From contig JAYEOW010000042.1 of NCBI GenBank assembly GCA_034723395.1, forward strand, positions 1 through 29,607: a stretch of DNA of 29,607 bases, given 5' to 3'. The notes under the pieces were generated by a model that saw only the letters and a list, made by a program, of their open reading frames with translations, was not told the DNA's origin and searched no databases. The stretch is from Candidatus Margulisiibacteriota bacterium. GTDB lineage: Bacteria; Margulisbacteria; WOR-1; O2-12-FULL-45-9. How positions within the stretch are numbered: the first letter of the stretch is position 1; each line of letters opens with the position of its first letter. This document shows, piece by piece, positions 2 to 20,383 of the stretch. Made by a program: the position numbers and the translations under genes.

Positions 2-526
2 AATTTTATCTCTGTTTTAGTTGTTAAAAAGGAGAGTTGGAGTAAGGTAGAAGGGAAAGAGATTTTTATTGGTAGCGATTGTAATCATATGTATATAATA
101 TTAAGTATATTATTTAGTGGGGATCACGGCGTTTTAAAATATATTCCTGATAAAATAGTTAAGCGGCGATGGGGGACCGATCGGATACCGGATGTTGAAA
201 AGAGAATAAGGTTGGATGTGGGATGGATACATAAGATTGCAAAAAAAGTATTTAATAATCCTAAGCATGTGCGAGGAGTCGATGCTCGTCTAATAAAAAA
301 TGACGGTTTTTCGTGGGCAGTGCGAACAAAAATATCGACGGGTAAATCTTTTTATTTTAATACTTTTCCTTTCTTGTTTGGCTATTTTTGGAGTTACCCT
401 CTATTTTGGATAAAAATTGTTCCGCTATTGTTTATGCCTAATTTTATATTAAAGATCATGCGTGGCTCTTACCGCAAAATGATTAAAGGTGAACCATTAA
501 GCGTACAGGAGGTGCTTGATGGTTAA
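2..526 (+). CDS. GT2 glycosyltransferase, C-terminal part (5'-truncated), resembling abequosyltransferase RfbV/WbaV
   Basis: The frame is open from base 2 (NFISVLVVKKESWSKVEGKEIFIGSDCNHMYIILSIL...LKYIPDKIVKRRWGTD...EKRIRLD). As I recall it, this follows the C-terminal pattern of Salmonella WbaV (S.IVKKERW...YIG..YPHVFIMMS...HYI...LV..R.DND...RRILID). CDP-dideoxyhexose genes lie downstream. Confidence 0.65.
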   Translation, partial: NFISVLVVKKESWSKVEGKEIFIGSDCNHMYIILSILFSGDHGVLKYIPDKIVKRRWGTDRIPDVEKRIRLDVGWIHKIAKKVFNNPKHVRGVDARLIKNDGFSWAVRTKISTGKSFYFNTFPFLFGYFWSYPLFWIKIVPLLFMPNFILKIMRGSYRKMIKGEPLSVQEVLDG

Positions 527-2060
527 ACGTATTATTGGTTTAGTATTCATCATGATATTAGTAGTGTTTGGGATCATGATGATCATGCCCCAGGATGGTC
601 TGAATTTTAATTTTGCCGCAAATAAGGGGATGTGGCAGGTATCTCCCGGGACGAAGGTCCGTTTTGACGGAGATACGGTTTCTTTAAAGAAAGGCTCTGA
701 TAATTTCTTTATTGCTGTTCCCGGGATCAATCTTGGGGCGGATCGATATGACGTGTGTATTATAGAGATGAAACAGCCGATAGCGTACGAAGAGGGGAGA
801 TTGTTCTTTATTTCCCAGTTTAATAAGGGCTATGATCGGAATTTTAGTTTCCCATTTGATACCGGGAAAGCCGATAAGTTTAATAAGATCTATATTGACT
901 TAAAAAAGCATGGCGCCTGGCAGGGAATAATACGCGAAATCTTAATTATCCCTGCGAAAAATTCAAAAACAGTATCGATAAAAAGTATCTCCTTTGTTGA
1001 CGCGAATCCCTGGACAAAAATGCGTGCCTGGTATAGCGATTTTACGCGCTATGGTGATCCACTGCTTGGAACATGCTTTTCCATGGCATCACCGATCTTT
1101 TTGGGAAGACCATTTAATATGCGCTTTATCCCGATATTATGGTGGATATTAGGAGTGGTTTTGCTAATTGTATTGGTTGATCGTTTTGCAGAAATAGATC
1201 CCAGGATAAAGAAATCCGCGATCGGAGTATTTTTCTTGATCATTGTATTATTGTGGGGAGCTCTTGATCTCAGAAATAATATTTATTACTTAAAAGCGAT
1301 ATCCAGGAATATTAGTCTTTATTGGGGAAAGCCGATGCAAGAGAAGCGGGGGATTGTTGTCGGCGACCAGGAATTTATCGATTTTATGAAGTTTTGCAAT
1401 GACAATATTCCGATCGATGCGCGGGTCTTTAACCAGGTGCCGGTTGAGGTGCCGGGAACTGCCTCAAACTATCTATCGGCGGTCCAATATTTGGCAAATT
1501 TTCGACCGCGATTTTATGATGGTAAATCTAAGTCGTATTATATATTTTACAAGCCAAAGGATGAGGGAAGCTGGGAATTATATCAGCAACAAGTGAATAT
1601 AAATGAATACCTTGATATTCTTCCAGGAGAGAAATTGCAGCAGGAGATAGAGTTGTGGCATCGCTTTAGGGATTTGTATCAGATCAATCTGTGGATAAAA
1701 GAAAAAGATGTTAAGAAGGCGGCGGTTGAGGTCATTGTTCTTGATAGAAGTGGGAAGAACATTGTGGGAAGAACAAGATATGTAAAACAAACTGGAGATG
1801 AAGCAGTTTTTCGTTTTAGCCCAAGAGTAAATATTGGAAAAGGAGAAAAAGTATTACTGCAGATAAAGAATAAAGGTAAAGATCCGATTGGGATCGGGAA
1901 TATTTATGGAGAACAATATCGGGAAGGGTTTTTGATCAGGGGTGGTAGAAGACAACAAAGAGATCTAACTTTCCGTCTTATTTACCGGCCAAAAGGCCTG
2001 GCCCTGTTTAAGCGCTTTAATAATGATGCATATATTTTGATGGATAGGAATATAAAATGA
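519..2060 (+). CDS. Membrane-anchored hypothetical protein with putative beta-sandwich extracytoplasmic domains; GT-C partner, copy 1
   Basis: AGGAGG at 507-512 precedes ATG 519. N-terminal TM/signal, beta-rich domain, two central TMs and a soluble C-terminal region. Collinear with 19152-20156(-). Confidence 0.8.
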   Translation: MVKRIIGLVFIMILVVFGIMMIMPQDGLNFNFAANKGMWQVSPGTKVRFDGDTVSLKKGSDNFFIAVPGINLGADRYDVCIIEMKQPIAYEEGRLFFISQFNKGYDRNFSFPFDTGKADKFNKIYIDLKKHGAWQGIIREILIIPAKNSKTVSIKSISFVDANPWTKMRAWYSDFTRYGDPLLGTCFSMASPIFLGRPFNMRFIPILWWILGVVLLIVLVDRFAEIDPRIKKSAIGVFFLIIVLLWGALDLRNNIYYLKAISRNISLYWGKPMQEKRGIVVGDQEFIDFMKFCNDNIPIDARVFNQVPVEVPGTASNYLSAVQYLANFRPRFYDGKSKSYYIFYKPKDEGSWELYQQQVNINEYLDILPGEKLQQEIELWHRFRDLYQINLWIKEKDVKKAAVEVIVLDRSGKNIVGRTRYVKQTGDEAVFRFSPRVNIGKGEKVLLQIKNKGKDPIGIGNIYGEQYREGFLIRGGRRQQRDLTFRLIYRPKGLALFKRFNNDAYILMDRNIK

Positions 2061-3436
2061 TATATTTAAAATTAATTATCGGGCTGTTCGTTGCATGGCT
2101 GCTGGGATATCTGATCGTCTATCTTTTTGACCCGGCAAAGAAGCTTCCTTTGTTCGAGGGGGCGGCATTGAGCTTTCTGGTCGGACAAGGAGCGATCACC
2201 CTTTTATTGTTCTTCCTGTTTCTTCTGTTGGTCCCTAATCCGATGATGATCGCCACTTTGCTGATCGCAATTATGTTCGCCGTTAAACTGTTTATTGATA
2301 AAAAGAAGCATTTTATTAATTTTACAGGCATTGCCAATGGTATAAGGCGGTCCTTTGCCAATAAGAAAAATATAATGGTCGTAATGATATTTGTTGTATT
2401 ATTTTCACTTTTAACAGTAAAAATATCATACTTATTTGTTGAAGCGTGCAGTAAGCCAGAATACGCCTGGGATGCCAGCGGCAACTGGACCGTTATTGGT
2501 CAGAGAGTTTATTACGCTCAGGAATATAGGCCAGATAAAGTTGTCGACGAATTACAGAAACATGTAAGCGGTTATCCGAGAGGGCTCTCCTTAACGCATT
2601 ATTGGCTGTTCAGCTGGATGGGCGAAGCTAATGACCAATGGTCAAAAATTATCTTTCCGTTGAATTTAATTTGTCTGTTAATTATATTTTATTATGGTTT
2701 AAAGCCGATTAGGGGTCGATTAGGGGCCTTAGCATTTACCTACTTCTTAGCTTCAGTCCCATTATTAATGTATCATGCCACGATCGGTTATGCCGACCTT
2801 ACTAAGACGGTTTATTTTGCGGCAGGGATAATATATTTTTATCGTTGGCTGCAAACCAAACAAAATAGTTACTTCTGGTTTTTTGCTGTCACGATGGCTT
2901 TGACCACATGGATCAAGATGGAGGGAAAGGTCCTTTATGCGATCGGATTTGCATTATTATTGTATTATCTGTGGCAGGGATGTAAGGAGCCATTAAAAAA
3001 TAAGCTCTTATATATCGGCAAATATCTATCATTATATTTAATTATAGGCTTGCCATGGCAATTATTCATTATGTTCGGTGATTTGCCGTACGTGCAATCA
3101 TCGATCCATCTGTCTGTTTCCCAGTTTTTAGCATTCCATGAGAAAATTTACGCATTAATGTTTATGGATGGGAGCTGGGGGATATTCTGGGTAATCGCTG
3201 CGGCAGCTATGCTCTTTTTCTTTAGAAAACAGCTGATTGGTGCAAACCTCTACCTTTTGCTAGCGATCATATTGTTCTATGGAAACTTACTTTTTATTTA
3301 TTCGTGTTTTCATGATACGGTTCATTTTATGCAACTTACATTTAGTCGCGTTCTTTTACCTATCTATCCGGTAGCAGTATTTAATATGGGCTGTATTCTT
3401 CCAATATTAAAAATTGATCAGAAGGTACAAATATGA
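2057..3436 (+). CDS. Polytopic GT-C fold glycosyltransferase (ArnT/PMT_2-like), copy 1
   Basis: About 12 hydrophobic segments; acidic WD motif (KPEYAWDASGNW) in a loop, then YP, GYADL and WIKMEG motifs. ATGA overlaps with both neighbours. Confidence 0.75.
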   Translation: MIYLKLIIGLFVAWLLGYLIVYLFDPAKKLPLFEGAALSFLVGQGAITLLLFFLFLLLVPNPMMIATLLIAIMFAVKLFIDKKKHFINFTGIANGIRRSFANKKNIMVVMIFVVLFSLLTVKISYLFVEACSKPEYAWDASGNWTVIGQRVYYAQEYRPDKVVDELQKHVSGYPRGLSLTHYWLFSWMGEANDQWSKIIFPLNLICLLIIFYYGLKPIRGRLGALAFTYFLASVPLLMYHATIGYADLTKTVYFAAGIIYFYRWLQTKQNSYFWFFAVTMALTTWIKMEGKVLYAIGFALLLYYLWQGCKEPLKNKLLYIGKYLSLYLIIGLPWQLFIMFGDLPYVQSSIHLSVSQFLAFHEKIYALMFMDGSWGIFWVIAAAAMLFFFRKQLIGANLYLLLAIILFYGNLLFIYSCFHDTVHFMQLTFSRVLLPIYPVAVFNMGCILPILKIDQKVQI

Positions 3437-4128
3437 AATTAACAGTAATAGCAACAGTATTTAATGAAGTTAAAACCGTATGCCAGGCGATTAAAGATAT
3501 CGAAAAGATTAAGGTGCCGGAAAAAGAGGTTATTATAATTGATAACTGTTCAACTGATGGTTCTAGGAAGCTACTGGAAGAACTTGAAGCTAATGATTTT
3601 AAGGAATATAAATATATTTATAATGATAAGAACCTTAAGTGCGGAAATTTTATTATTGGCAGGGATATGGCAAATGGAGAATATATATATTTGCATCACA
3701 CCGACCTGGAATACGATCCTGGCGCGGCGATGGAAATGCTGGCGGTTGCGGAGCAGGGCAGTTATGATGTGATACTCGGTTCTAGGCTAAAGGACAATAA
3801 GGATTCGATGTGGAGTATAATGAGGAAGCGGCCGGAATATCTAGCCACAATAATATCTACCGCTTTGGTAAATAAATGGTATGGGAAGAAATTCACAGAT
3901 ATAATCGGGACCCGGTTATATCGCACGTCTACTATTCGAAAAGTACCGACTGGGACTACTGGGTATGGTTTCGAGTTCGGTTTCGTAACTCGGATGTGCA
4001 AGCTTGGATTGAAGATTGCGGAAATTGCGGTGCCTTATAAGCCACGAGTATGTAAACGAGATAAAAAGGTTAAACCTTATCATATGTTGAATGCTTTATT
4101 TGAGATGTTCAAGGCGAGATATTTTTAA
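3433..4128 (+). CDS. GT2 polyprenol-phosphate glycosyltransferase (DPM1/GtrB-like, soluble form)
   Basis: VFNE, IIIDNCSTDGS, TDLEYDP, DVILGSR, FTD, YGFE and EIAVPYKPR...KK motifs of DPM-like GT2. Confidence 0.85.
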   Translation: MKLTVIATVFNEVKTVCQAIKDIEKIKVPEKEVIIIDNCSTDGSRKLLEELEANDFKEYKYIYNDKNLKCGNFIIGRDMANGEYIYLHHTDLEYDPGAAMEMLAVAEQGSYDVILGSRLKDNKDSMWSIMRKRPEYLATIISTALVNKWYGKKFTDIIGTRLYRTSTIRKVPTGTTGYGFEFGFVTRMCKLGLKIAEIAVPYKPRVCKRDKKVKPYHMLNALFEMFKARYF

Positions 4129-4152
4129 ATTGCATAAAAGGGGGGAGCTAAA

Positions 4153-4929
4153 ATGAAAGTTGTTATATTAGCCGGAGGTTTAGGGACCAGAATTGGAGAA
4201 GAGACCGCAATAAAACCGAAACCGATGATTGATATTGGGGAGAGGCCAATTCTTTGGCATATCATGAAGATTTACGCCCATTATGGTTTTAATGAGTTTA
4301 TTATTTGCTGCGGCTATAAGGGATATCAGATTAAAGAATATTTTAAAAACTACTTCTTACATGAATCTGATGTAACCTTTGATTTCGATGGAGGAGAAAA
4401 AAAGCTGATCCATAGCCATACGGCTGAGCCTTGGAAAGTTACTTTAGTTGACACTGGGTTAGATACCCAAACGGGGGGGAGACTAAAGCGAGTAAGGAAA
4501 TATCTAGGGGATGAAGATTTTATGTTTACTTATGGAGATGGGGTTGGGGATATTAATATTAAGGAATTATTAGATTTTCATAAGTCTCATAAAAAATTAG
4601 CAACAGTTACCGCAGTAAGGCCATTAGGTAGATTTGGCGCATTAAGTATTAAAGATTATAATGTAAAAAAATTCCAGGAAAAGACAGAGGGGAATAATTC
4701 GTGGATCAATGGTGGTTTTTTTGTCATGAATCCCAAAGTTATCGATTATATTGAAGGAGATGAAACTCCTTTAGAAACCAAACCAGTGCGGAAATTGGCA
4801 AAAGAGGGGGAGCTTATGGCTTATAAACATACGGGTTTTTGGCAACCGATGGATACACTAAGAGAAAAAAATATGCTTGAAAACTTGTGGAAATCAGGGA
4901 ATCCGCCATGGAAGGTCTGGGAAAAATGA
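4153..4929 (+). CDS. rfbF: Glucose-1-phosphate cytidylyltransferase (RfbF/DdhA)
   Basis: MKVVILAGGLGTRIGEET..KPKPM, TGGRLKRV, FTYGDG, WINGGFF, FWQPMDTLREK; SD GGGGGAG upstream. Confidence 0.97.
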   Translation: MKVVILAGGLGTRIGEETAIKPKPMIDIGERPILWHIMKIYAHYGFNEFIICCGYKGYQIKEYFKNYFLHESDVTFDFDGGEKKLIHSHTAEPWKVTLVDTGLDTQTGGRLKRVRKYLGDEDFMFTYGDGVGDINIKELLDFHKSHKKLATVTAVRPLGRFGALSIKDYNVKKFQEKTEGNNSWINGGFFVMNPKVIDYIEGDETPLETKPVRKLAKEGELMAYKHTGFWQPMDTLREKNMLENLWKSGNPPWKVWEK

Positions 4930-4954
4930 CGAATGACTAATTCCGAATGACGAA
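4927..4954 (+). repeat. Four tandem heptamers TGACGAA TGACTAA TTCCGAA TGACGAA
   Basis: Read directly; they span the rfbF stop and fill almost the whole rfbF-rfbG spacer. Confidence 0.8.
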
Positions 4955-4957
4955 TTT

Positions 4958-6115
4958 ATGAATAATTATTTTTGGAAAAAAAAGAGAGTATTTATAACCG
5001 GTCATACTGGTTTTAAAGGGTCGTGGCTCTGCTTGTGGTTCTATCTGATGGGGGCAGAGGTTGTCGGATATGCGCTGCAGCCGCCAACTAGGCCGAGCCT
5101 TTTTAAACTATGCAGGATCGATAAATTGGTCAAGTCGATCATTGGTGATGTAAGAGATTTAAAAAAATTAAAGAGAGCAATGCTGGCAGCAAAGCCCGAG
5201 ATAGTATTCCATATGGCGGCGCAGCCGATCGTGCGCGAATCATATAAGGTCCCGGTCGATACATTTAATATTAACGTTGTCGGAACGGTAAATGTTCTAG
5301 AAGCAGCGAGATCGTGTAGAAGCATTAAGGTAATTGTTAATGTGACTACAGATAAGGTTTATGAGGAAAGTAACGAGAATAGAGTAACGAGTAATGGGTA
5401 CAAGGAGTCTGATAAATTGGGCGGATATGATCCTTACGCGGGCAGTAAAGCTTGTTCGGAGATCGTTTCGTCAGTTTACCGGCGATCTTATTCGATGAAT
5501 ATCGCAACTGCCAGGGCAGGGAATGTAATTGGCGGCGGGGACTGGGCTGGAGACAGGCTGATCCCGGATTTTGTAAGAGCATTAATTAGTAAACGGAAGG
5601 TTAAGTTGAGAAATCCCAAGGCAACCAGGCCTTGGCAGCATGTATTGGAGCCGTTAAGCGGTTACCTGATGCTTGCTGAGAAGTTATATAAAAAGGCGGA
5701 TAAATATTCAGGGGCCTGGAATTTCGGGCCGGATGATCGGGATTCAAAGACGGTTGGCTGGGTTGTTAATAAACTGATGAAAAAATTAAAAGTAAAAAAT
5801 ATGGTCCAGATAGATAAAAAAAAGCATCCGCATGAAACTAAATTATTAAAGTTAAACTCAAAAAAATCTCGTAAAGAGCTTGGCTGGCGGCCAAAATGGG
5901 GGATCGATAAAGCGATCGATAAAATTGTCGAATGGACCAATGCTTATCAACGGAGGGAAAATGTTGCTTCAGTTTGTATGAAGCAGATTGAGGAGTATCC
6001 CTCACCCCGCCTCGTCCTCGACAGGCTCGGACTCGGCACCCCTCTCCACAAAGTGGAGAGGGGAAAAGAAGGGATGAGGCAAAAAGGAGTAGTATGCAAA
6101 AGGAAGAGAAATTAA
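4958..6115 (+). CDS. rfbG: CDP-glucose 4,6-dehydratase (RfbG/DdhB) with a C-terminal extension
   Basis: ITGHTGFKGSWL, FHMAAQP, TTDKVY, LGGYDPYAGSK, RAGNVIGGGDW, RPWQHVLEPL.GY. Confidence 0.96.
   Translation: MNNYFWKKKRVFITGHTGFKGSWLCLWFYLMGAEVVGYALQPPTRPSLFKLCRIDKLVKSIIGDVRDLKKLKRAMLAAKPEIVFHMAAQPIVRESYKVPVDTFNINVVGTVNVLEAARSCRSIKVIVNVTTDKVYEESNENRVTSNGYKESDKLGGYDPYAGSKACSEIVSSVYRRSYSMNIATARAGNVIGGGDWAGDRLIPDFVRALISKRKVKLRNPKATRPWQHVLEPLSGYLMLAEKLYKKADKYSGAWNFGPDDRDSKTVGWVVNKLMKKLKVKNMVQIDKKKHPHETKLLKLNSKKSRKELGWRPKWGIDKAIDKIVEWTNAYQRRENVASVCMKQIEEYPSPRLVLDRLGLGTPLHKVERGKEGMRQKGVVCKRKRN
5369..5396 (+). repeat. Intragenic heptamer tandem AGTAACG AGAATAG AGTAACG AGTAATG
   Basis: Read directly inside rfbG; encodes SNENRVTSNG. 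Confidence 0.7.
6000..6079. repeat. GC-rich REP-like structured element at the 3' end of rfbG
   Basis: Outer IR CCTCACCCC (6000-6008) / GGGATGAGG (6071-6079); perfect 11-bp hairpin CCCCTCTCCAC-AAA-GTGGAGAGGGG (6039-6063); inner imperfect hairpin GTCCTCGACAGGCTCGGAC (6014-6032). Confidence 0.8.
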
Positions 6116-7416
6116 GAGAAAAAGCGATTAGGGCGGCGATCGAGCATTATGCGGAAATGCATAAGAAAAAGGATTATAAGCCAGGCGATAAAATTTCTTA
6201 TGCCGGAAGAGTTTTTGATGAAAAAGAGATTTCTAATCTTATTGATTCTTCCCTCGATTTCTGGCTGACCGCTGGCAGATATGCGGATAAGTTCGAAAGG
6301 GGTTTAGCTGATTTTCTTGGAGTTAAATATTGTTCACTGGTCAATTCCGGATCGTCCGCGAATCTACTGGCGTTCATGGCTTTGACCTCGCTTAAGCTTG
6401 GGGATAAAAGGATCAAGCCGGGGGATGAGGTGATAACGGTTGCGGCGGGTTTTCCGACTACGATCGCGCCGATAATCCAATATGGTGCAGTTCCAGTTTT
6501 TGTTGATGTATCGATTCCCAGCTATAATATCGATTGCAGTCAGTTAGAAAAAGCTTTATCGAACAAAACAAAAGCGGTAATGATCGCCCATACCCTGGGG
6601 AATCCTTTTGATGTTAAAGCGGTTAAAGCATTTTGTGAAAAGCATGGTCTCTGGTTGATTGAAGATAACTGTGACGCTTTAGGATCAAAATATGCCGGGG
6701 AGTATACCGGAAGCTTTGGCCACGTTGCAACCTCGAGCTTTTATCCTCCGCATCATATCACCATGGGCGAAGGCGGAGCAGTTTATACCAACGATGAACA
6801 GATCAAGAAGAATGTTGATTCATTTAGAGATTGGGGAAGGGATTGCTGGTGTCCCGCTGGCAAAGACAACACTTGCAGCAAACGTTTTCAGTGGCAATTG
6901 GGTGAGCTGCCGAAGGGATATGATCATAAGTACACCTATTCCCACTTTGGTTATAATCTAAAAGCCACCGATATGCAGGCGGCGATCGGCTGTGCCCAGC
7001 TGGAAAAGCTCCCTTCATTTATTAATGCGAGGAAGAAGAATTGGAAATATCTCCGCGAAAGCCTTCAAGAACTTGCGGATATATTTATCCTGCCTGAGCC
7101 GATGGAGAATTCTGATCCGAGCTGGTTCGGATTTCTTCTAACGGTAAAAGAAAATGCTGGTTTTTCACGGGATGATGTTGTAAAACATCTTGAATCGAAG
7201 GGGATACAGACAAGGATGCTTTTTGCAGGGAATATGATAAAGCATCCATGTTTTGATGAGATGAGGAGAGAGGGCAAAGGATATCGAGTGGTAAGCGATC
7301 TAAAAAATACCGATGTTATTATGAACCAGACTTTTTGGATCGGGGTTTATCCGGGATTAACGAAAGCGATGTTGGACTATATGATCACAAATATAAAGGA
7401 GTTTAGTAATGTTTAA
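6094..7416 (+). CDS. rfbH: CDP-4-keto-6-deoxyglucose 3-dehydrase E1 (RfbH/DdhC)
   Basis: LDFWLTAGR, NSGSSANLLA, EDNCDALGS, SFYPPHHITMGEGG (His in place of the Schiff-base Lys), Fe-S motif RDWGRDCWC..GKDNTC, YDHKYTYSH.GYNLK. Confidence 0.96.
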   Translation: MQKEEKLREKAIRAAIEHYAEMHKKKDYKPGDKISYAGRVFDEKEISNLIDSSLDFWLTAGRYADKFERGLADFLGVKYCSLVNSGSSANLLAFMALTSLKLGDKRIKPGDEVITVAAGFPTTIAPIIQYGAVPVFVDVSIPSYNIDCSQLEKALSNKTKAVMIAHTLGNPFDVKAVKAFCEKHGLWLIEDNCDALGSKYAGEYTGSFGHVATSSFYPPHHITMGEGGAVYTNDEQIKKNVDSFRDWGRDCWCPAGKDNTCSKRFQWQLGELPKGYDHKYTYSHFGYNLKATDMQAAIGCAQLEKLPSFINARKKNWKYLRESLQELADIFILPEPMENSDPSWFGFLLTVKENAGFSRDDVVKHLESKGIQTRMLFAGNMIKHPCFDEMRREGKGYRVVSDLKNTDVIMNQTFWIGVYPGLTKAMLDYMITNIKEFSNV

Positions 7417-8893: not shown

Positions 8894-8894
8894 G

Positions 8895-11275: not shown

Positions 11276-11279
11276 ATGA

Positions 11280-12302
11280 ATGAATAAAATTATTGATCAA
11301 GATATAGACTTTATATTAAAAAGTGATGTTGACTGGGGGGAATTTAAGGGCAAGACGGTTCTTGTTACTGGAGCCTATGGAACTCTCATGTCATATATAA
11401 CTTATGTGTTGATCCGTTTAAAAGTTAAAATAATTGTTTTAGTGCGAGATCGGAATAAGGCGGGGCAGAGATTTGGTAATTATGTTGATAGTAAGTGCTT
11501 GAAAATAATTGAGCATGATTTGTCGTCGCAGATCGAGATCACAGATAAGATTGATTATATATTTCATGGTGCAAGTTATGCGAGTCCAAATTATTTTAAA
11601 AATAATCCGACAGGCGTTCTGTTGCCGAACACTATTGGAACATACCATTTATTGGAGCTGGCGAAGAAAAAAAAGATAAAGGGTTTTCTGTTTTTTAGCA
11701 GTGGAGCGGTATATGGAAAGAACCTTACTGAGCTGGTTGCCGAAAAAGACTATGGATATCTTGACCCGCTAGACATTATAAGTTGTTATGGGGAGAGTAA
11801 AAGGATGGGGGAGAATATGTGTCGGTGCTGGCAAGAACAATTTGGGATCCCCGTTAAAATAGTGAGGCCAGCTCATGTTTATGGACCCACCATGGATATT
11901 CAAAATGACAAGCGAGTGGTTGCAGAATTTATTAATAAAATATTAAATGGTCAGGGTATTGTATTGAGAAGTGACGGCTTAGCCTGCCGCTCATTTTGTT
12001 ATATTGCCGATGCTACGGTAGCGTATTTTAAGGTCCTTTTAGGTGGAAAAGATGGAGAAGCGTATAATGTAGGAAACGATGCTGTGTACATGTCGATTGT
12101 CAAACTTGCCGAAAATATTGTTTCTACTTTTCCGGAAAAACATTTGAAGATAATTATTAATAAAAAAGAAAATGACATTCCAATTGAAGAAAATAAAATG
12201 TTAATGTCTTCTAGAAAGATTGAGGCTCTTGGGTGGAAGTGTTCATTTTCTTTGCCAGAAGGGCTAAGGCGGACGGTTGAGAGTTTTCAATGCAAAGCGT
12301 AA
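11280..12302 (+). CDS. NAD-dependent epimerase/dehydratase (extended SDR); candidate YerF-like reductase
   Basis: VTGAYG, HGASYASP, FFSSGAVYG, CYGESKRMGE (YxxxK), RPAHVYGP, RSFCYIAD. Confidence 0.85.
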   Translation: MNKIIDQDIDFILKSDVDWGEFKGKTVLVTGAYGTLMSYITYVLIRLKVKIIVLVRDRNKAGQRFGNYVDSKCLKIIEHDLSSQIEITDKIDYIFHGASYASPNYFKNNPTGVLLPNTIGTYHLLELAKKKKIKGFLFFSSGAVYGKNLTELVAEKDYGYLDPLDIISCYGESKRMGENMCRCWQEQFGIPVKIVRPAHVYGPTMDIQNDKRVVAEFINKILNGQGIVLRSDGLACRSFCYIADATVAYFKVLLGGKDGEAYNVGNDAVYMSIVKLAENIVSTFPEKHLKIIINKKENDIPIEENKMLMSSRKIEALGWKCSFSLPEGLRRTVESFQCKA

Positions 12303-13246
12303 AGGATGTGTTATCCGTGCTATTAGAGAAGAGAGGCCAATATTTAAAAGGGAAGATTGATAAAAAGAATTACATGGAGGATATGTTTGAAATTCATAAG
12401 CGTTTATTTGAGTATCCAGGGTTATTGGCAGATTCCCTCATCAATAAAATTGAGATCAACGCTGAACAAGTAATATTTACTATCCGGAATGGTAATAACA
12501 ATATAATGCTCTGCTGTGACAAAAGAGAAGCTCATTCTTTGCCGATGTCGTTTCTTAATCTATCTTCAGTTGAAACTGAGGAAAATAAAATGATCCTGCA
12601 GCTTATTCAACCCGGAGATGTTGTCTTTGATATCGGTGCAAATATAGGCTGGTATACGATTAGTATATTACTTGCACGGAAAGGGACTTCTGTTTACTCT
12701 TTCGAGCCGATAAAATCATCATATCAATATTTGCTGAAAAATATGGAGCTTAATAATCAAAAAACTGAAAAGGCATATAATATTGGCCTGTCTGATGAGA
12801 ACAATATGATAGATTTCTTTTTTGACATAAAATGCGCTACAGCTTCATCGTTGGCAAATCTAAGGGAAGATAAGTGTACAGTGAAAGAAACCTGTGAGGT
12901 AAAAAGGCTGGATGATTTTTTAAAAACGATCCCTTCTGTAAGTAAGCTTGATTTCGTTAAGTGCGATGTGGAGGGAGCCGAGTTATTTGTTTTTAAAGGA
13001 GCGATAGAAACGATAGGCAAATTTAAGCCGATTGTATTCTCAGAGATATTAAGGAAATGGTCTAAAAAGATGGGATATCACCCTAATGATATTATTGATC
13101 TGTTCCGCAGTATTGATTATGAATGTCATGTTATTAATAAAGGTAAAATCGAAAAGTTTGGATCAGTTGATGAGGATACAGAGTACACTAATTATCTGTT
13201 TTTTCATAACAAGAAGCATGCAGGTATAGTTAAGCGGTTATTATGA
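12290..13246 (+). CDS. FkbM-family methyltransferase
   Basis: VVFDIGANIGWY, FEP, LDD, KCDVEGAELFVFKG. Confidence 0.9.
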   Translation: MQSVKDVLSVLLEKRGQYLKGKIDKKNYMEDMFEIHKRLFEYPGLLADSLINKIEINAEQVIFTIRNGNNNIMLCCDKREAHSLPMSFLNLSSVETEENKMILQLIQPGDVVFDIGANIGWYTISILLARKGTSVYSFEPIKSSYQYLLKNMELNNQKTEKAYNIGLSDENNMIDFFFDIKCATASSLANLREDKCTVKETCEVKRLDDFLKTIPSVSKLDFVKCDVEGAELFVFKGAIETIGKFKPIVFSEILRKWSKKMGYHPNDIIDLFRSIDYECHVINKGKIEKFGSVDEDTEYTNYLFFHNKKHAGIVKRLL

Positions 13247-13734
13247 GTGTAAATAATGCAATAAAAATATTAGATGAAAAAGCATCCGATCCTTCGGCAG
13301 GATTGCCTGAGGAGTTGTTTTTGTTTATAAGCCGAAAAACGCCGTTGGTAAATGTTGATCTGCTTATTAAAGATAAAAAGGGGAGGACCCTGTTGTCTTG
13401 GAGAGATGACCAGTATGCCGGTATCGGCTGGCATGTACCGGGAGGGATTCTTCGCTTTAAAGAAGATCTGGAAAGGAGAATATTGAAAGTTGCTAAAAAT
13501 GAAATTGGAGCGATAATAAAATATGATCCTGCTCCGATTGCGATCAACCAGGTAATCTGCGAACATGATACCAGGGGACATTTTATTTCTATATTGTATA
13601 GATGCTCACTTTCTAGTAAATATATTCCAGAAAACAAAGGATTATCAACTAAAGATCCTGGCTATCTAAAATGGCACGATTCTTGCCCGGAAAATCTAGT
13701 GGAAGTGCATGAAGTGTACAGGAGATATCTCTGA
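13243..13734 (+). CDS. Nudix hydrolase, GDP-mannose mannosyl hydrolase (Gmm/WcaH)-like
   Basis: F..ISRKTPLVNVDLLI...LL..R...WHVPGG...E...R...EIG; modified Nudix box and a RGH motif. Confidence 0.8.
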   Translation: MSVNNAIKILDEKASDPSAGLPEELFLFISRKTPLVNVDLLIKDKKGRTLLSWRDDQYAGIGWHVPGGILRFKEDLERRILKVAKNEIGAIIKYDPAPIAINQVICEHDTRGHFISILYRCSLSSKYIPENKGLSTKDPGYLKWHDSCPENLVEVHEVYRRYL

Positions 13735-13736
13735 CT

Positions 13737-14915
13737 ATGGCAAAGACAAAGAAATGCAGAATATGCGGTAATGATTTCTTTAATGATCCGCTGCTCTGCT
13801 ATAAAAATATGCCAAAAGCGGCCCAATATCTGCCAGACAAAAATGCGCTTAAAAATGATCATGGGATTGATCTGGAGGTATATCAATGTTCCGGATGCGG
13901 GCTGGTGCAGTTGAGCAATAAACCGGTCCCGTATTATAAGGAGGTCATCCGCGCGGCGGGTATTTCGGACGAAATGATGGCTTTCCGGAAGAGGCAATTT
14001 GCCGATCTTCTGGAGAAATATTCTCTTAAAGGTAAAAAAGTAATTGAGATCGGCTGTGGATGCGGAGAATATCTCTCTATTATGCGGCAGGCAGGGGCAG
14101 ACGCTTGTGGATTGGAGCAATCGGCGGAATCGGTCAGCAAGTGCGTTGAAAAAGGATTAAAAGCAGATCAGGGATTCATTCAAGATAATTTTTATAAATT
14201 GGAAGGCGCTCCATTTAATGCTTTTTGTATGTTGAATTTTCTAGAGCACCTGCCGGACCCGAATTCGATCCTGAAGGGGATATCTTTTAATCTCGTAGGA
14301 GGCGGGATGGGGCTTGTGGAGGTGCCGAATTTCGATATGATTTTGCGGAACAACCTTTTTTCGGAATTCATAGGGGATCATCTGCTTTATTTTACAAGGG
14401 ATACTTTAAATACAGCACTAAAGTTGAATGGTTTTGATATCATTGAGTGTAATGAGGTTTGGCACAATTATATAATATCTGCCGTTGTAAAGAAAAATTC
14501 CTTGATGCCGAGCAAAGTCAAGACGCTCGGAAAAAGTGAAAGGCTGGACCTATCGCACTTTAATAAATATCAATCCAAACTCAAGGCTGAAATCGAAGCA
14601 TTCATTCATCGAAACGGGAATAGAAAAGTGGCAATATGGGGTGCGGGACATCAAGCCTTGGCAGTTATTGCATTAACCAAACTTGCGGGCAAAATTAGGT
14701 ATGTTGTTGACTCTGCAGCATTTAAGCAGGGCAAATATACGCCAGCCTCACATATACCCATAGTTAAGCCTGATACACTTAGATCTAATCCTGTAGATGC
14801 GATTATTGTTATAGCGGCTAGTTACTCGGATGAGGTAGCCAAAATCATCCAGCAAAAATATGCTGCCAATATTAAGGTTGCCATATTGAGGGATAATGGC
14901 CTAGAGATTATTTAG
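13737..14915 (+). CDS. SAM-dependent methyltransferase of the NDP-sugar C-methyltransferase architecture
   Basis: Zn-binding CRIC...CSGCGLVQ, EIGCGCG, FLEHLPDP, EVPN, DHLLYF; C-terminal WGAGHQ...VDS...KQGKYTP.SHIPI. Confidence 0.85.
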   Translation: MAKTKKCRICGNDFFNDPLLCYKNMPKAAQYLPDKNALKNDHGIDLEVYQCSGCGLVQLSNKPVPYYKEVIRAAGISDEMMAFRKRQFADLLEKYSLKGKKVIEIGCGCGEYLSIMRQAGADACGLEQSAESVSKCVEKGLKADQGFIQDNFYKLEGAPFNAFCMLNFLEHLPDPNSILKGISFNLVGGGMGLVEVPNFDMILRNNLFSEFIGDHLLYFTRDTLNTALKLNGFDIIECNEVWHNYIISAVVKKNSLMPSKVKTLGKSERLDLSHFNKYQSKLKAEIEAFIHRNGNRKVAIWGAGHQALAVIALTKLAGKIRYVVDSAAFKQGKYTPASHIPIVKPDTLRSNPVDAIIVIAASYSDEVAKIIQQKYAANIKVAILRDNGLEII

Positions 14916-14927
14916 GAGGTAAGTTGG

Positions 14928-16013
14928 ATGTCAGAATTAAAATCAAGCGAGAAAGACAAGAGGAATAACCTAAAAAGGGAAAAACCATATGTCCATGAAA
15001 AGATCATGCGGTATGATGAAAAAATTAAAAAGGGCGAAAGCATTGCTATCCTTCAATTTCAGTATGATTATACTTGTAATTTTGCCTGCCAGCATTGTTG
15101 CATAACCAGGTTGCGCCGAAAAAATGCAGATAGATTTTTTACTCCGGCAGATGTTGCCGAGCTTTCGCGACAAGCAGACGAGATGGGATTGGCCCACATT
15201 GTTATTACGGGTGGCGAACCTTTGGTTTTTCCCGAATTTGACCAGATAGTTGAGGCAATAGATCCTCAGAAATTTTATATTTCTTCAGATACTAATGGCT
15301 GGAATTTAGATGAAGAAAAAGCCAGGCACCTTAAAAGTATTGGGGTCGATAAAATTCAGCTCAGCCTCGACAGTTTAAAAGATACGGAGCATGATGAGTT
15401 TAGAAACAAAAAAGGTTCGCATGGCCGATGTTTAAAGGCAATCGATGCAGCCCAAAAAGCTGGTTTAAACATTATTGTTCAAACGGTGGTTTGGAAGGAA
15501 AGGGTAAGGTCGCAAGAATTTATTGATTTTTTGGAATATTTAAATGGGAGAGGGGTAGCGGTCTTTATCACTTACGCAAAACCGGTTGGAGCATGGGAAG
15601 GTAAGTTTGATTCTCTCATTGACCGTAGTGATATGGATTATATAAGAGAGCTGGAAAAGAAGTATAATGTTTTTACCCATTTAACCCCATCTTACGGCCT
15701 TGATTTGGGGTGCATTGGAGTTAAAAGGATGGTTTCTATAACTAAATATGGTGATGTGATGCCATGCCCGTATATTCATGTTTCACTTGGGAACTTTTTT
15801 AAGGAACCTCTAAAAGATATTATTGAGCGAGGTTTAAATATTAAGCATTTTGGGCAATATTGTGATACTTGCTGGGTAGCCGAAGATAGGAATTTTATTG
15901 ATAAATACTTGGCGAAGAGAATATATGGCAAACCGCTCCCAGTGCCTTATGATGAAGTTTTTACAAAAGAGGACATTATTAAACCAGAAGAAAGAAAACT
16001 TTATCGTCCTTAA
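14928..16013 (+). CDS. Radical SAM enzyme with SPASM/twitch domain
   Basis: CNFACQHC (CxxxCxxC), TGGEP, TNG, SLDS, HD.FR; C-terminal GC...ITKYGDVMPCPY...CDTC; SD AGGAGG. Confidence 0.92.
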   Translation: MSELKSSEKDKRNNLKREKPYVHEKIMRYDEKIKKGESIAILQFQYDYTCNFACQHCCITRLRRKNADRFFTPADVAELSRQADEMGLAHIVITGGEPLVFPEFDQIVEAIDPQKFYISSDTNGWNLDEEKARHLKSIGVDKIQLSLDSLKDTEHDEFRNKKGSHGRCLKAIDAAQKAGLNIIVQTVVWKERVRSQEFIDFLEYLNGRGVAVFITYAKPVGAWEGKFDSLIDRSDMDYIRELEKKYNVFTHLTPSYGLDLGCIGVKRMVSITKYGDVMPCPYIHVSLGNFFKEPLKDIIERGLNIKHFGQYCDTCWVAEDRNFIDKYLAKRIYGKPLPVPYDEVFTKEDIIKPEERKLYRP

Positions 16014-16021
16014 ATGAGGCT

Positions 16022-16417
16022 ATGATTAGAAGGATATATAGAAAACACCGCGAGAAGATCAATTACATCCTGGTAGGCTGTTACAATACGATATTTGGTT
16101 ATGGAACATTCGTTGCCCTCTATTATCTCCTCCATCAGCGGATCCATTATCTGGTTCTGGTCGTCGTCGCATATGTAATAAGCATAACCAATGCATATAT
16201 CGGTTATAAGATATTTGTTTTTAGGACCGAGGGGAATTATCTTAAGGAATATTTGCGGTTTTATGTTGTTTATGGATTTTCTCTGGTCCCAAACCTTATC
16301 TTATTGCCGTTTATCGTTGAAATATTTAAAATGAGCCCCGTTATCGGGCAGGCCTTCGTGATCGCCTTCAGTGCGGTTTTTAACTACATGGGGCACAAAC
16401 ACTTCTCATTTAGATGA
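16022..16417 (+). CDS. GtrA-family polyprenyl-phosphate-sugar flippase
   Basis: 131 aa with 4 TMs; YILVG..NT, KIFVFR, RFY..Y, NY..HKHFSF. Confidence 0.9.
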   Translation: MIRRIYRKHREKINYILVGCYNTIFGYGTFVALYYLLHQRIHYLVLVVVAYVISITNAYIGYKIFVFRTEGNYLKEYLRFYVVYGFSLVPNLILLPFIVEIFKMSPVIGQAFVIAFSAVFNYMGHKHFSFR

Positions 16418-16440
16418 TGCGGGGAAGAAGATGTTCACTA

Positions 16441-16469
16441 TTTACCGGCTCTATTTTTCCTGCTATAAT
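16441..16469 (+). promoter_or_regulatory. Sigma70-type promoter TTTACC-N17-TATAAT with extended -10 TG
   Basis: TTTACC 16441-16446; TGcTATAAT 16461-16469; ATG at 16480 with no SD. Confidence 0.65.
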
Positions 16470-16479
16470 TTAGTGTCAC

Positions 16480-17748
16480 ATGAGGATTTTTCTTGATTTA
16501 ATCATAATTAATTTTTCAGCGGTTTTGGCTTTTCTTCTGCGGGAACACTGGCTGCATTTTATCAAAAAACTTCCTTCTGAGCATTTGGGGAGGTACATCC
16601 TGGCTCTTGCCGGGTTTAATCTTATCTATCTTTTTATATCTTGGCTGGTTGGCCTCTATGATAAACGGCAAAAAAGAGCGCTGCTTGAAGAATTCCTCCT
16701 AATTTTAGGTATTTTCCTGATATGTATGGCGGTCACAATTAGCTTTTTGTTTCTGGGAAGATTATGGTGGGTTTCGAGAATAATCGTATATCTTTTTTTG
16801 GGGGCTTCCATATTTTTGCTCTGTCTTTCCAGATATTTATTTAGATCAGCAACATTGGCTAAAAAAATGGGGATAAAATATGACCTGTCTGAATTTAAGA
16901 ATAAATCAGCAAAAAAAGCTTTAGAGATAGAACTGCAAAAAATCAAGAAACTTTCGGTTATTATTGTTACTTACAATCATAAGGAGTTGTTGTCGAAATG
17001 TTTACTTTCACTGAAGGAAGCAGATGTCAAAATCCCGCTAGAAATTGTTATTGTAGATAACAATTCAAATGACGGAACGGTTGAATTTGTCCAAGGCGGT
17101 TATCCAAAAGTGAAAATCATTAAAAATAATGAAAATCTGGGGTATTCAAAGGCGGTAAATATCGGCTTGCGGGTAGCATCCTCAGAATTTTATTTGATCA
17201 TTAATCCGGATATTCTTGTATTGCCCGGATCAATAGAATTAACATTGGACTACATGATAAAACACCCTAAAGTTGGAATTGCCGGCTGTAAACTCTTTAA
17301 TGAGGATGGTTCTCTGCAATTCTCGGCGCGGCGGTTTTTGGACTTGAGGACATATTTGTATCGTTTTACCCCTTTGCGGGGACTGATGTCCGGTAGCGCT
17401 TTGGAGAGGCGCTATTTGATGCAGGAATGGGACCATTGTGGTAATCGTTCTGTGGATTGGGTGTTGGGTGGTTGCATGCTGATCAGAAAATCAGCTGCGG
17501 ATAAAGTTGGCCTGATGGATGAAAGATTTTTTATATATTTTGAGGATGTTGATCTTTGTTATCGGATGTGGGATAAGGGATGGCCGGTTGTGTATGTGGG
17601 CGAAGCGGGAATGGTCCACAAGCATGCACGGACAAGCGCTAATAAGATATTCAGCAAAGCTACACGAGAACATTTTAAGAGCCTTTTTTATTTTTTGGGG
17701 AAGGCCGGGTTCCGCCCGCCAAGGAATTGTCCTTCAAGCTTGGAATAA
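16480..17748 (+). CDS. GT2 glycosyltransferase (WbbL/rhamnosyltransferase-like) with an N-terminal 4-TM domain
   Basis: SVIIVTYN, VDNNSNDGT, NLGYSKAVN, INPD, DWVLGGCMLIR, DERFFIYFEDVDLC.R; first ~125 aa are hydrophobic. Confidence 0.9.
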   Translation: MRIFLDLIIINFSAVLAFLLREHWLHFIKKLPSEHLGRYILALAGFNLIYLFISWLVGLYDKRQKRALLEEFLLILGIFLICMAVTISFLFLGRLWWVSRIIVYLFLGASIFLLCLSRYLFRSATLAKKMGIKYDLSEFKNKSAKKALEIELQKIKKLSVIIVTYNHKELLSKCLLSLKEADVKIPLEIVIVDNNSNDGTVEFVQGGYPKVKIIKNNENLGYSKAVNIGLRVASSEFYLIINPDILVLPGSIELTLDYMIKHPKVGIAGCKLFNEDGSLQFSARRFLDLRTYLYRFTPLRGLMSGSALERRYLMQEWDHCGNRSVDWVLGGCMLIRKSAADKVGLMDERFFIYFEDVDLCYRMWDKGWPVVYVGEAGMVHKHARTSANKIFSKATREHFKSLFYFLGKAGFRPPRNCPSSLE

Positions 17749-19147
17749 TCGCTTCCGCGCAGAAATATGTTATTATTACAATATATGCCATGGTCAAACG
17801 ATCGAAAATTGTGCCGTCCAGAAGCCATCTGAACATTTCAACTGTCCCAAACTGAACAAAAAGGGCAAGAACATCCAGAAAAATAATTGCCAGCAGGAAA
17901 ACAAGCGGCGAGCGCAATGATCTCCTATAGAATAATACCAGCGATACAATAAATAATGCCCATAAAAGGTGCCAATCGGCATAGAGGAATAATTTTTTAG
18001 CCATTATTGAGAAAATTATCCCGGCTTTGTTCGGAGGCAGGATTTTAGCCGGCGCCGCCGCCGAAGCGCCGCCATTTCCTATCCCCAATATTGATCTAAT
18101 AATTACGATAAGGATATTGAACTGACCATATAAAAGCATCGGGATGATCAAAATAAAAAAATTGAAAAGGGGGATAGCTGCATGCAATAGGTCGCTCCCC
18201 GTGATTTTATTTTTGTTAACGGTCAGATAAGTTAGCAGGACAAAGATGTTGGTTCCGGCATAAACAATTCCCGCTCTTTTTGTCCATACAGCAAAAGCCA
18301 ATAAGACGAAAGATATTAGTAAGTTTGAAAAAGCACTTTCTTTGTCAGAAGCATTAAAAGACTTCATGAATAAGAGGAGGTAAATTGTCGCAGCGCCGTA
18401 ATAAAAGCTCATTGTGAAATCGCCATAGGCGGTAGCGACATGGAAAACCAGGAAGGGCAGGGTGCTTAATAGGAAGGTGAAGATCATGCTCATCCGCCTA
18501 GTATAATATTTGCGCAGTGCCGAGTAAAAAATAACCAGCAGGCACAGGAATAGTGTCGGGAATAATATTTTAAATAGCGCGTCATTGATCGTGTGCATGC
18601 CGATGAATGCCCACCCCTGGGATAGATATGGTAAAAGCGGTTTATCGTGAATATGCTTAAGAAGGTATGGGGTGTTAAAGGTTTTTTCAAAAAAAATACC
18701 TTTGGCGACGATCGAATAGTATAAAAAAGCATCAACGTCTATGAGGGGCTTAACGATCGAAGCAAAATAAACGTAAATTACTTTAAAGGCCAATAAAATA
18801 GCCAGGCTGTATTCCCACCAAGCCATGTTTTGATGGTCGAATTTATTTATTTTTTTGATCTCCGCCAAATTGATACAGAAAGCTTTCTTTTTAAGCAAAT
18901 AGAGGCCGATTATTGCCGCTGTGACAAAAAGGGAACCTGTGATGCTGAAAAAAGTCAAAGGGATTTTTACAAGCTTGGTGAGCAGGAACATGACAATAAC
19001 AATGGCCCCGAGCCCAATGGGGAAAGCAAGGGCAAGTTTTTCCCAGAAATAGAACCGATTTGCGCTTTTTTGCATGAACAGAGAGAGCAGAAAGAGCCCA
19101 AAAATCGATGGAATGAGTATTATGATTAAAGTATTTAGTATTTGCAT
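17675..19147 (-). CDS. Polytopic GT-C fold glycosyltransferase, copy 2
   Basis: KPLIDVDA, KPLLP, INDALFKILFP, HVATAYGDF, WTKRAG and W.LLW motifs are collinear with 2057-3436. The 3' end overlaps the convergent GT2 by 74 bp. Confidence 0.78.
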   Translation of the reverse strand: MQILNTLIIILIPSIFGLFLLSLFMQKSANRFYFWEKLALAFPIGLGAIVIVMFLLTKLVKIPLTFFSITGSLFVTAAIIGLYLLKKKAFCINLAEIKKINKFDHQNMAWWEYSLAILLAFKVIYVYFASIVKPLIDVDAFLYYSIVAKGIFFEKTFNTPYLLKHIHDKPLLPYLSQGWAFIGMHTINDALFKILFPTLFLCLLVIFYSALRKYYTRRMSMIFTFLLSTLPFLVFHVATAYGDFTMSFYYGAATIYLLLFMKSFNASDKESAFSNLLISFVLLAFAVWTKRAGIVYAGTNIFVLLTYLTVNKNKITGSDLLHAAIPLFNFFILIIPMLLYGQFNILIVIIRSILGIGNGGASAAAPAKILPPNKAGIIFSIMAKKLFLYADWHLLWALFIVSLVLFYRRSLRSPLVFLLAIIFLDVLALFVQFGTVEMFRWLLDGTIFDRLTMAYIVIITYFCAEAIIPSLKDNSLAGGTRPSPKNKKGS

Positions 19148-19151
19148 ACGG

Positions 19152-20156
19152 CTATTTTTTCCTCAGGATATAGGCGCCATTTCTAAATTTTTTCCATGGC
19201 GTATATGTTTTTAGCAGTTCATTTTCAAATTGCTTATCATAGATCACCAGAAATTCTCCGCCCTTTTCATGTTTTATGGGATACAAGTAATAAGTCGCTT
19301 TTATGTCATTATAGAAGGGAGGGATCCGGGAATCAAAAGTGGAATCTGCGGGGATGTTCTCTTTGCAAAATTGGATAAAGGGATAAAAATCTCCCGTATT
19401 TATGATCGTCCGTTTTTCGTTGATATTCTTCCCAATAAGTATGAAGTCCTGCTTTGTGCTGTTCCAATTGTTAGATAATGTGTTGGCTTCCAGGAGGGCC
19501 CATATGATTATAATGGCGATAACCAGCTTTTTCCCCACTTCCGGAAGCAATTCGAGGAGGTCTAAATTTTTATTATTTTTAATGGTTACAATTATTTTCC
19601 AGGTGATCAATCCGATGAAAATAAAGAATAATGTCCAATATATATAAACGAAAACTGATCTGCCGTAGAGATTCGAGCTTTGCATGGTATTGATCGTGCT
19701 CCCGGTCTCAACTCTCCCTCTCGGCCCCCAAAACTCCTGCCAACCGGAGATGATATTAGTGAACAGATTTCCTTCAATGATCTCCGCCGAGCTTATTTCT
19801 ATCTTGCCGTTTATTTGTGGAAATAATAATAATCCTTTTATCCATCCGATCCAGTTTGGATTCTGCGAGGGGATATTTAAATAATAACTTTTTTCTCCTT
19901 TTTTAATCAAGAACTGGACGTTTTTCCGTTGATCAAAGCCTTTGTCGTATGAGGTTAGCCAGAACAAGTTTGCTTGGCCGGATTTATTTGCCTTAATTTT
20001 CAAAACAACCGTATTATATTCCTCTGAATCAAGCATAAGCTGAGATGATTGGAGGTAGGGTTGGTTGGGGACGGGGTGAAATGTAATGTTTTTTGCTAGA
20101 ACGGTGATTTGGAGTAATGTAAGAACCAGAATGCTGAATAGTATACGTTTTGGCAT
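19152..20156 (-). CDS. Membrane-anchored hypothetical protein; GT-C partner, copy 2
   Basis: Likely start is ATG 20156 (MPKRILFSILVLTLLQITVLA signal peptide). Collinear with 519-2060 (W.G.I..LL..P, GK...EKR.I, F..FC..NIP, K.F...AYIL). Confidence 0.8.
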   Translation of the reverse strand: MPKRILFSILVLTLLQITVLAKNITFHPVPNQPYLQSSQLMLDSEEYNTVVLKIKANKSGQANLFWLTSYDKGFDQRKNVQFLIKKGEKSYYLNIPSQNPNWIGWIKGLLLFPQINGKIEISSAEIIEGNLFTNIISGWQEFWGPRGRVETGSTINTMQSSNLYGRSVFVYIYWTLFFIFIGLITWKIIVTIKNNKNLDLLELLPEVGKKLVIAIIIIWALLEANTLSNNWNSTKQDFILIGKNINEKRTIINTGDFYPFIQFCKENIPADSTFDSRIPPFYNDIKATYYLYPIKHEKGGEFLVIYDKQFENELLKTYTPWKKFRNGAYILRKK

Positions 20157-20372: not shown

Positions 20373-20383
20373 TTTTATCTACT

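Follow-up and report, generated by a model that had tools for sequence, protein, structure and literature searches.

The window analysed here, a stretch of 29,607 nucleotides from contig JAYEOW010000042.1 of a Candidatus Margulisiibacteriota bacterium (assembly GCA_034723395.1, class WOR-1), carries two pairs of neighbouring genes, in each of which a membrane protein, here called the partner (A1 and A2), is encoded directly upstream of a glycosyltransferase of the GT-C type (B1 and B2). We consider, with a probability of roughly 70%, that each pair encodes a single GT-C glycosyltransferase divided between two membrane proteins. On this reading the upstream partner likely provides, as judged by sequence comparison, what in one-piece relatives forms the C-terminus, namely the last membrane helix and an extracytoplasmic domain. 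The partner is very probably obligate for its GT-C, whether it is a detached piece of that enzyme or a protein of separate origin. The pairs occupy the following positions (aa, amino acids):

519..2060, + strand: partner A1 (513 aa; core profile E 4.8e-12)
2057..3436, + strand: GT-C copy B1 (459 aa; family profile E 5e-108; PMT_2 E 4e-4, below cut-off)
17675..19147, - strand: GT-C copy B2 (490 aa; AlphaFold2 model and structural search)
19152..20156, - strand: partner A2 (334 aa; structure model)

All four open reading frames (ORFs) lie where the first-pass annotation of this DNA had placed them. It had described them as diverged paralogous pairs in the same gene order, each tightly coupled, and the copies do align significantly: A1 with A2 at BLASTP E 1e-12 (63 of 252 residues identical, 25%) and B1 with B2 at E 2e-25 (120 of 486, 25%). 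A1 and B1 share an ATGA overlap, as do B1 and the GT2 gene that starts at 3433, and 4 nt separate the A2 stop from the B2 start. The motifs said to be shared can be read in the translations, namely GAWQGIIREILIIP/PNWIGWIKGLLLFP, GKPMQEKRGIV/GKNINEKRTII, FMKFCNDNIP/FIQFCKENIP and KRFNNDAYIL/KKFRNGAYIL in the partners and KPEYAWDA/KPLIDVDA, NDQWSKIIFP/NDALFKILFP, HATIGYAD/HVATAYGD and WIKMEG/WTKRAG in the GT-Cs. The genome (97% complete) contains only two copies each of partner and GT-C. Since the two window copies sit in different tree clades, each spread over several WOR-1 families, the duplication is old and a recent local duplication is ruled out; the two pairs are ancient paralogues that probably differ in sugar or acceptor. 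In genome G013 both arms of the window layout are repeated, on two contigs.

That the polytopic proteins have a GT-C fold, as had been proposed, is borne out by structure prediction for B2 and by homology for B1. The AlphaFold2 model of B2 (predicted local distance difference test, pLDDT, 88; predicted template modelling score, pTM, 0.90) is all-helical to the chain end and in a wide structural search (VIA) matched ArnT at Z 23.5, with a root-mean-square deviation (rmsd) of 3.4 over 313 aligned residues, as well as ALG12 (Z 19.1), AglB (Z 18.1) and Gpi14 (Z 14.3); the top 20 matches are GT-C-fold chains. Foldseek with B2 returned GT-Cs at all of ranks 1-23, none of them at E 0.001 or below, and a sequence search of the PDB with the GT-C profile gave no match. 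Because residues 109-471 of the B2 model align with residues 26-364 of the 541 of ArnT, B2 consists of three additional N-terminal helices and a GT-C core and stops where ArnT goes on, at a helix that corresponds to ArnT residue 364. PMT_2 was matched in 46 of the 65 family members, among which G45, P134, D139 and K290 are invariant and D243 (60/65) and R450 (64/65) nearly so. The conserved acidic residue D139 is predicted from hydropathy and charge to lie outside, in the outer loop after the first core helix, and by the general rule on the catalytic acidic residue of GT-Cs (given in the part of PMC11127046 available to us) it would be the catalytic base.

The C-terminal soluble alpha/beta domain, a feature of the ArnT, AftD and PglB type, is absent from B1 and from the B2 chain. 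As estimated by hydropathy, fewer than 80 residues follow the last predicted helix in 93 of 95 family ORFs (median 10), and at least 80 do so in 103 of 105 other GT-Cs of the same DNA (median 131); these counts include kin genomes, are not independent and overstate the number of events, which weighs against our reading. The family profile spans only residues 15-344 of 524 and 26-347 of 491 in two other GT-C families of the same genome, which holds five other GT-Cs with their own C-terminal domains, on contigs C1, C4, C40 and C46.

In the model of A2 (pLDDT 87), a signal sequence or helix (residues 2-15) is followed by a jelly roll resembling a carbohydrate-binding module (CBM; 19-130), two helices (168-193 and 200-240) and an alpha/beta domain (245-333). 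A1 likewise comprises an N-terminal membrane or signal helix, a CBM-like beta-sandwich, two membrane helices and a C-terminal alpha/beta domain, and is longer through a beta-rich insert of about 145 aa inside the latter (residues 353-497, window 1575-2009), which occurs only in clade-1 partners (P0162, P0165, P0192, P0204, L017, L078 and L079). All three parts were present in 78 of 150 representative partner matches, the sandwich only in 33, mostly as repeats in large secreted proteins, and the last helix and C-terminal domain only in 24, many of these core-only matches being proteins of 110-190 aa. Judged from these sequences, the last helix and the C-terminal domain are the constant core of the partner family, and the conserved partner residues lie in a domain predicted to be outside the cytoplasm. 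Searches of Pfam, NCBIfam and PDB sequences returned no named family for the partner, fold searches with the whole model matched nothing but the beta-sandwich, and the ESM Atlas, which flagged Nitrospirota, Myxococcota and Peregrinibacteria as further phyla, gave only unnamed clusters; the nearest named Atlas clusters for the short partner, PF27383 (0.83) and DUF2079 (0.82), were below the bar of 0.9 and were not used. The A2 sandwich matches CBM8 at Z 10.9 (rmsd 2.6, 108 residues aligned) and many CBMs at Z 8-9, a fold also shown by domains that are not lectins, for example that of Eph receptors. On this model the N-terminal domain may be carbohydrate-binding, and as an extra domain of the WOR-1 partners it would help to hold a glycan acceptor. 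Large secreted proteins (P0134, P0141, P0146, P0156 and others) contain the same sandwich in 2-6 repeats, and some of them also have WbsX, SLH, CBM6 or beta-helix domains; no Pfam family covers the sandwich, which from its sequence may be an undescribed CBM.

Partner homologues nearly always adjoin a GT-C (56 of 64 in WOR-1, 19 of 19 in Omnitrophota and 11 of 13 in a third lineage, from metagenomes), in agreement with the dedicated role that the first-pass annotation had read from the retention of the partner in both window pairs. In a survey of 146 Margulisbacteria genomes, the partner and GT-C profiles each matched 47, and with strict cut-offs both were found in the same 45, all of the class WOR-1. 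The GT-C lies directly downstream in 51 of the 64 partner matches and behind one GT2 gene in 5, the remaining 8 being 5 at contig ends and 3 weak ones with internal stops. Among the 68 GT-C matches, 56 are paired in this way, 5 more, with a triple tandem in G097 among them, have divergent partners on inspection and the other 7 are weak, fragments or at contig ends (G016, G097:236962 and G144:C80 resemble other families). A profile of the short partner gave 19 matches in 17 of 151 Omnitrophota genomes, all directly before a GT-C, and a pattern scan of a partly overlapping set of Omnitrophota genomes found the partner before the GT-C in 15 of 15 cases; both unpaired loci of the third lineage are at contig ends. 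The GT-C profile had 94 matches in 72 of the 151 Omnitrophota genomes, and from those without a partner match we inspected 40 regions, about 35 matches lying outside this set. Each of the 31 divergent tail-less GT-Cs in these regions has a membrane ORF of 115-271 codons directly upstream, and a profile of 27 of the 31 ORFs aligned with the partner core, to its C-terminus, at an HH probability of 44-49% and E 2e-4 (score 26-27 against a shuffle maximum of 15-16, above 30 of 30 shuffles). Leaving contig ends aside, all family members that we inspected have a partner upstream. Plasmids and phages were searched and gave no match to the pair, and nothing was found in a genome scan with P0186. At locus L070 (G097:C3:220000-239500), positions 3995-9791 hold three tandem pairs of partner and GT-C; their short partners are divergent, and the third of the GT-C ORFs, with only 423 codons, may be broken.

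Partner and GT-C distances correlate at r 0.81 over 68 pairs, a value inflated by shared ancestry; better evidence is that within-genome paralogues follow their own partner. In two phyla and the third lineage the gap between the two genes stays at about -30 to +20 nt while all other neighbours change, and where tandem arrays occur, both genes have been copied together. Both features argue against the view that the two genes are inherited together as neighbours in envelope clusters, their products not interacting directly, a view that we regard as most improbable, although shared trees are common among operon neighbours and the binding of the pair is a prediction. One-to-one pairing would also fit a dedicated substrate, that is, a partner which is itself the acceptor, a membrane protein glycosylated by the neighbouring GT-C; GT-Cs that O-glycosylate proteins exist (PMC12041528, in its accessible part), and 46 of the 65 family members match PMT_2. 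However, the partner model is compact and folded and has no Ser/Thr-rich stretch, and the loss of the tail exactly where a partner is present would be left unexplained, and we hold this alternative to be very improbable.

Relatives with the tail on the same chain speak for the split GT-C. Eight of the inspected Omnitrophota matches are ORFs of 603-653 codons with their own tail and no partner gene, their alignment to the family starting from the extra N-terminal helices. They represent a one-piece family of about 610 aa (PMT_2-positive; alignment A10), which a search of 251 Omnitrophota genomes detected in 69 and of which we aligned 29 members of 546-652 aa, one of 30 loci having been dropped as incomplete. 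These proteins have a tail of 128-172 aa, and in none of the 29 does an upstream ORF match the partner profiles. HHalign placed residues 6-473 of B2 on residues 10-447 of the one-piece protein with a probability of 99.5%, and the partner core on residues 452-521 with E 0.0013, a probability of 19% and a score of 29.6, compared with 12.9 +/- 2.8 (maximum 20.4) for 30 shuffles and 13.9 for the reversed profile; the helix-free part of the partner scored 23.5 against 12.5 +/- 1.5 for shuffles (maximum 15.2). The GT-C and partner pieces are thus colinear on the one-piece protein and do not overlap, the one ending at 447 and the other starting at 452. This position directly behind the GT-C, reached with a score above all shuffles, is what speaks against the partner as an obligate auxiliary subunit of separate origin, which would stabilise the GT-C or recruit its acceptor as Pbn1 does for Gpi14; so does the complementary distribution, one-piece forms having a tail without a partner and split forms a partner without a tail. 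Such a subunit would explain the pairing and the tree congruence equally well, the probability of 19% is a weak homology signal to the one-piece tails, and the Gpi14-Pbn1 structure (PMC12653191, as far as its text is available) provides a precedent, Gpi14 itself matching B2 at Z 14.3. On balance we consider it unlikely.

Further points weigh against a split GT-C. The alignment of partner and tail covers 69 columns, only the helix and the first half of the domain, at the said 19%; 7 of the 29 one-piece tails match the combined partner hidden Markov model at E <0.2; for the divergent-partner profile by itself, E is 0.065. Four other GT-C families gave no significant match when their tails were compared with the partner domain, unrelated families scoring equally, and an enrichment of GT-C tails among the scores (area under the curve 0.87) was rejected as an effect of composition, since the reversed profile reached 0.85 and block shuffles did equally well. 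Moreover, solved GT-Cs include short chains (ALG3 with 385 and PimE with 383 residues), so that a tail-less form need not need a replacement, and the split forms are monophyletic only at a support of 0.22. A search for longer fused forms, a weak test, turned up one ordinary partner.

In the FastTree phylogeny of the GT-C core, for which 63 of 67 sequences were kept, split and one-piece forms make up one clade with a support of 0.95, with tailed outgroups. Because the sister and the outgroups have a tail, fission is, on these sequences, more parsimonious than fusion. A frameshift artefact was ruled out, since all relatives share the break and the piece resembling a C-terminus is the upstream one. 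Tandem duplication and loss of the outer ends would leave the C-terminal piece first and the N-terminal piece second.

Between the two pairs, and at the outer end of the second one, the window contains the following features:

3433..4128, + strand: soluble GT2, likely a DPM-like polyprenyl-phosphate sugar synthase (PF00535 E 3e-24)
4153..16013, + strand: nucleotide-sugar cluster (Pfam/NCBIfam matches)
within 4153..16013, + strand: RfbF-, RfbG- and RfbH-like set, CDP-3,6-dideoxyhexose route (RfbH NF011936 762 bits, over cut-off)
within 4153..16013, + strand: NeuB+cupin, NT5C-like, FkbM and C-methyltransferases, Nudix, radical SAM/SPASM
16022..16417, + strand: GtrA-family flippase (PF04138 E 1e-19, 70.8 bits against a cut-off of 26.1)
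16480..17748, + strand: GT2 with four N-terminal membrane helices (Pfam and helix prediction)
20164..20192, - strand: sigma-70-like promoter match TTGGTA-17-TATAAT, 7 nt upstream of the A2 ATG

In the pathway that we propose, the GT2 at 3433 would charge undecaprenyl phosphate with a sugar, after which GtrA (16022) would flip the lipid-linked sugar and a heterodimer of the B2/A2 type would transfer it, via Asp139, to a cell-surface acceptor. The two chains would associate within the membrane and restore the cavity that lies between membrane domain and soluble domain, the partner helix entering from the cytoplasmic side at the end of the last helix of B2 and the soluble domain being placed over the active site. 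The CBM-like domain appears dispensable for the core pairing, because the Omnitrophota partners are without one. Since the evidence favours a split GT-C, the partner would be the second half of the third component and not an unrelated fourth. The first-pass annotation, whose interpretation is supported in part, had proposed a fourth component and named an acceptor-recognition subunit, a split GT-C domain and a substrate as options; the split GT-C domain is the one we favour, with the CBM-like domain as an optional add-on, while the substrate is unlikely and a separate fourth component fits less well. It is tempting, and distinctly more tentative, to see here a widespread undescribed GT-C clan whose enzymes, divided by an ancient fission that left the gene order reversed, function solely as heterodimers, their C-terminal subunit being an exchangeable acceptor-specificity module that gains CBM-like domains, inserts and GT2 or GtrA fusions and that may nucleate a complex of synthase, flippase and transferase, channelling branched deoxy sugars to the surface; taken as a whole, this wider picture is possible but doubtful.

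As for the donor genes, the GT2 at 3433 had been called DPM- or GtrB-like. It matches PF00535 (E 3e-24), with AglJ, PgfS and dolichyl-P hexose transferase as best NCBIfam matches, all below cut-off. As no membrane helix is predicted, the protein would be soluble and of the DPM-like and not the GtrB-like kind. The GtrA reported between the two pairs is indeed there (PF04138 E 1e-19) and is the sole GtrA found in the genome. Around the pairs of relatives we scanned 40 regions, many of them cut by contig ends. By hand count a DPM-like GT2 is present in 22 of the 40 at E <1e-10 and in 14 at E <1e-40, a GtrA lies within about 10 kb in 9 and an enzyme dependent on thiamine diphosphate (ThDP) in 7. 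As a general rule, these counts do not support the suggestion that the pair delivers unusual sugars made beside it: what is conserved is the pair, while the sugar cluster varies, and because of this we put the chance that one window copy delivers the sugar of the cluster at about one in three.

In locus L055 (5371-6468) a single ORF joins a DPM-like GT2 to a short partner, a similar junction starts P0200, and in P0096 (497 aa) a GtrA domain is joined to a full WOR-1-type partner. The fusions in L055 and P0096 fit the proposed topology and pathway, though they may be fusions of mere neighbours. A fusion of DUF2079 and partner, P0220, was rejected as evidence of the split, DUF2079 genes being merely upstream neighbours in that lineage. 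Taken together with the lack of a membrane helix in the GT2 at 3433, the GT2 gene between partner and GT-C at 5 WOR-1 loci and the precedent of GacI/GacJ (described in the accessible text of PMC8035078), the two fusions could also place the partner on the donor side, where it would anchor the soluble GT2 to the membrane or activate it, in the manner of GacJ, or act as a scaffold of synthase, flippase and GT-C. We find this improbable, as the GT-C adjoins the partner in nearly all loci whereas the DPM-like GT2 is in 22 and GtrA in 9 of the 40 regions, and the conserved partner residues are in the domain predicted to be extracytoplasmic.

Within the sugar cluster, window positions 7409-8893 encode a NeuB-family synthase fused to SAF and to a cupin/lyxose-isomerase-like domain, adjoining the NT5C-like gene. 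A ThDP enzyme, whose best solved relative is 8RPH (E 1e-118), and then an NAD-dependent reductase/epimerase lie at 9473-12302. By analogy these two are a candidate branched-sugar pathway, the window's pattern of RfbH, ThDP enzyme and reductase being like that of YerE/YerF in branched-sugar synthesis (PMC9306805, in the part available). B2 and the convergent GT2 (16480) share 74 nt at their 3' ends (17675-17748). At the start of the contig, an ORF of 145 codons (89-526) overlaps the start of A1; it has no Pfam/NCBIfam match and is probably the end of a truncated gene. Promoter-type sites number 5, compared with 1.9 +/- 1.3 in shuffles, and from its sequence the putative A2 transcript is possibly leaderless. 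The promoter-like site of A2 (20192-20156, - strand) is divergent from a small HTH_17 gene (20345-20629, + strand) and from Wza/Wzz-like genes, which come after the locus; such a divergent layout recurs in about 10 of the 40 regions of relatives. LpxC is present in the genome (C17) and no WaaA was found in the genome search. Those homologues with a named source are from WOR-1/Saganbacteria or Margulisiibacteriota.

The host organisms are uncultured, that of the window being a bacterium of groundwater type. The one-piece relatives are a built-in control for the split, and the two paralogous pairs in one genome allow cognate and crossed combinations to be compared. If our reading is true, a GT-C can have its outer domain as a subunit of its own, with consequences for the evolution of acceptor specificity and for the engineering of glycosyltransferases by subunit swap, and a family of hypothetical proteins in 47 of 65 WOR-1-class genomes and in many Omnitrophota would obtain a function. 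The pair is real and conserved, and probably undescribed, no description of a partner/GT-C pair having been found in the open literature, covered mostly at abstract level. Rismondo et al. 2021 (PMC8035078, in its accessible text) raise the speculation that a small GT-C may depend on another protein for binding the acceptor, and list this as an open question; the window offers a concrete candidate pair for this speculation, which came without an example there.

Compared with known systems, B2 shares its membrane fold with ArnT of Cupriavidus metallidurans (PDB 5F15/5EZM), including the conserved Asp in the first outer core loop, but has three extra N-terminal helices, and at 12% identity nothing about the substrate follows from the likeness. 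ArnT, AftD, PglB, AglB and STT3 carry the C-terminal soluble domain on their chain, whereas the window equivalent is likely a separate upstream gene; according to the available part of the AftD preprint (10.1101/2019.12.22.885152), the GT-Cs solved by then always had a soluble periplasmic domain, with the active site between it and the membrane domain. Searches of solved chains found no sequence link to the partner. In GT136 ORF12 of Citrobacter youngae, AftD and the Emb arabinosyltransferases a CBM-fold beta-sandwich is fused to the GT-C (PMC11127046, accessible part), whereas in the window the CBM-like domain is on the partner chain. Gpi14/PIG-M with Pbn1/PIG-X also combines a short GT-C with a membrane-anchored subunit that has a luminal domain (PMC12653191, available text), but Pbn1 has this domain N-terminal and the anchor C-terminal, the opposite order to the partner core. 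The one-piece family of about 610 aa aligns colinearly with the window GT-C, the three extra N-terminal helices included, but is a single polypeptide without an upstream partner match. With the GtrA-GtrB-Gtr*, CsbB-GtcA-YfhO and GacI/J-K-L systems the locus has in common a GT2 synthase candidate, a GtrA and a GT-C; it differs in the membrane protein that, by its genes, is an obligate upstream companion of the GT-C, in the soluble GT2 and in the loose linkage of GtrA. By the genomic test, the single-chain GT-C that is the only transfer component of three-component Gtr systems is not what the window family has. Judged from its genes, the system would thus be a Gtr-type extracytoplasmic glycosylation system in its working and a GT-C by fold, distinct both from the standard three-component type and from the single-chain ArnT type.

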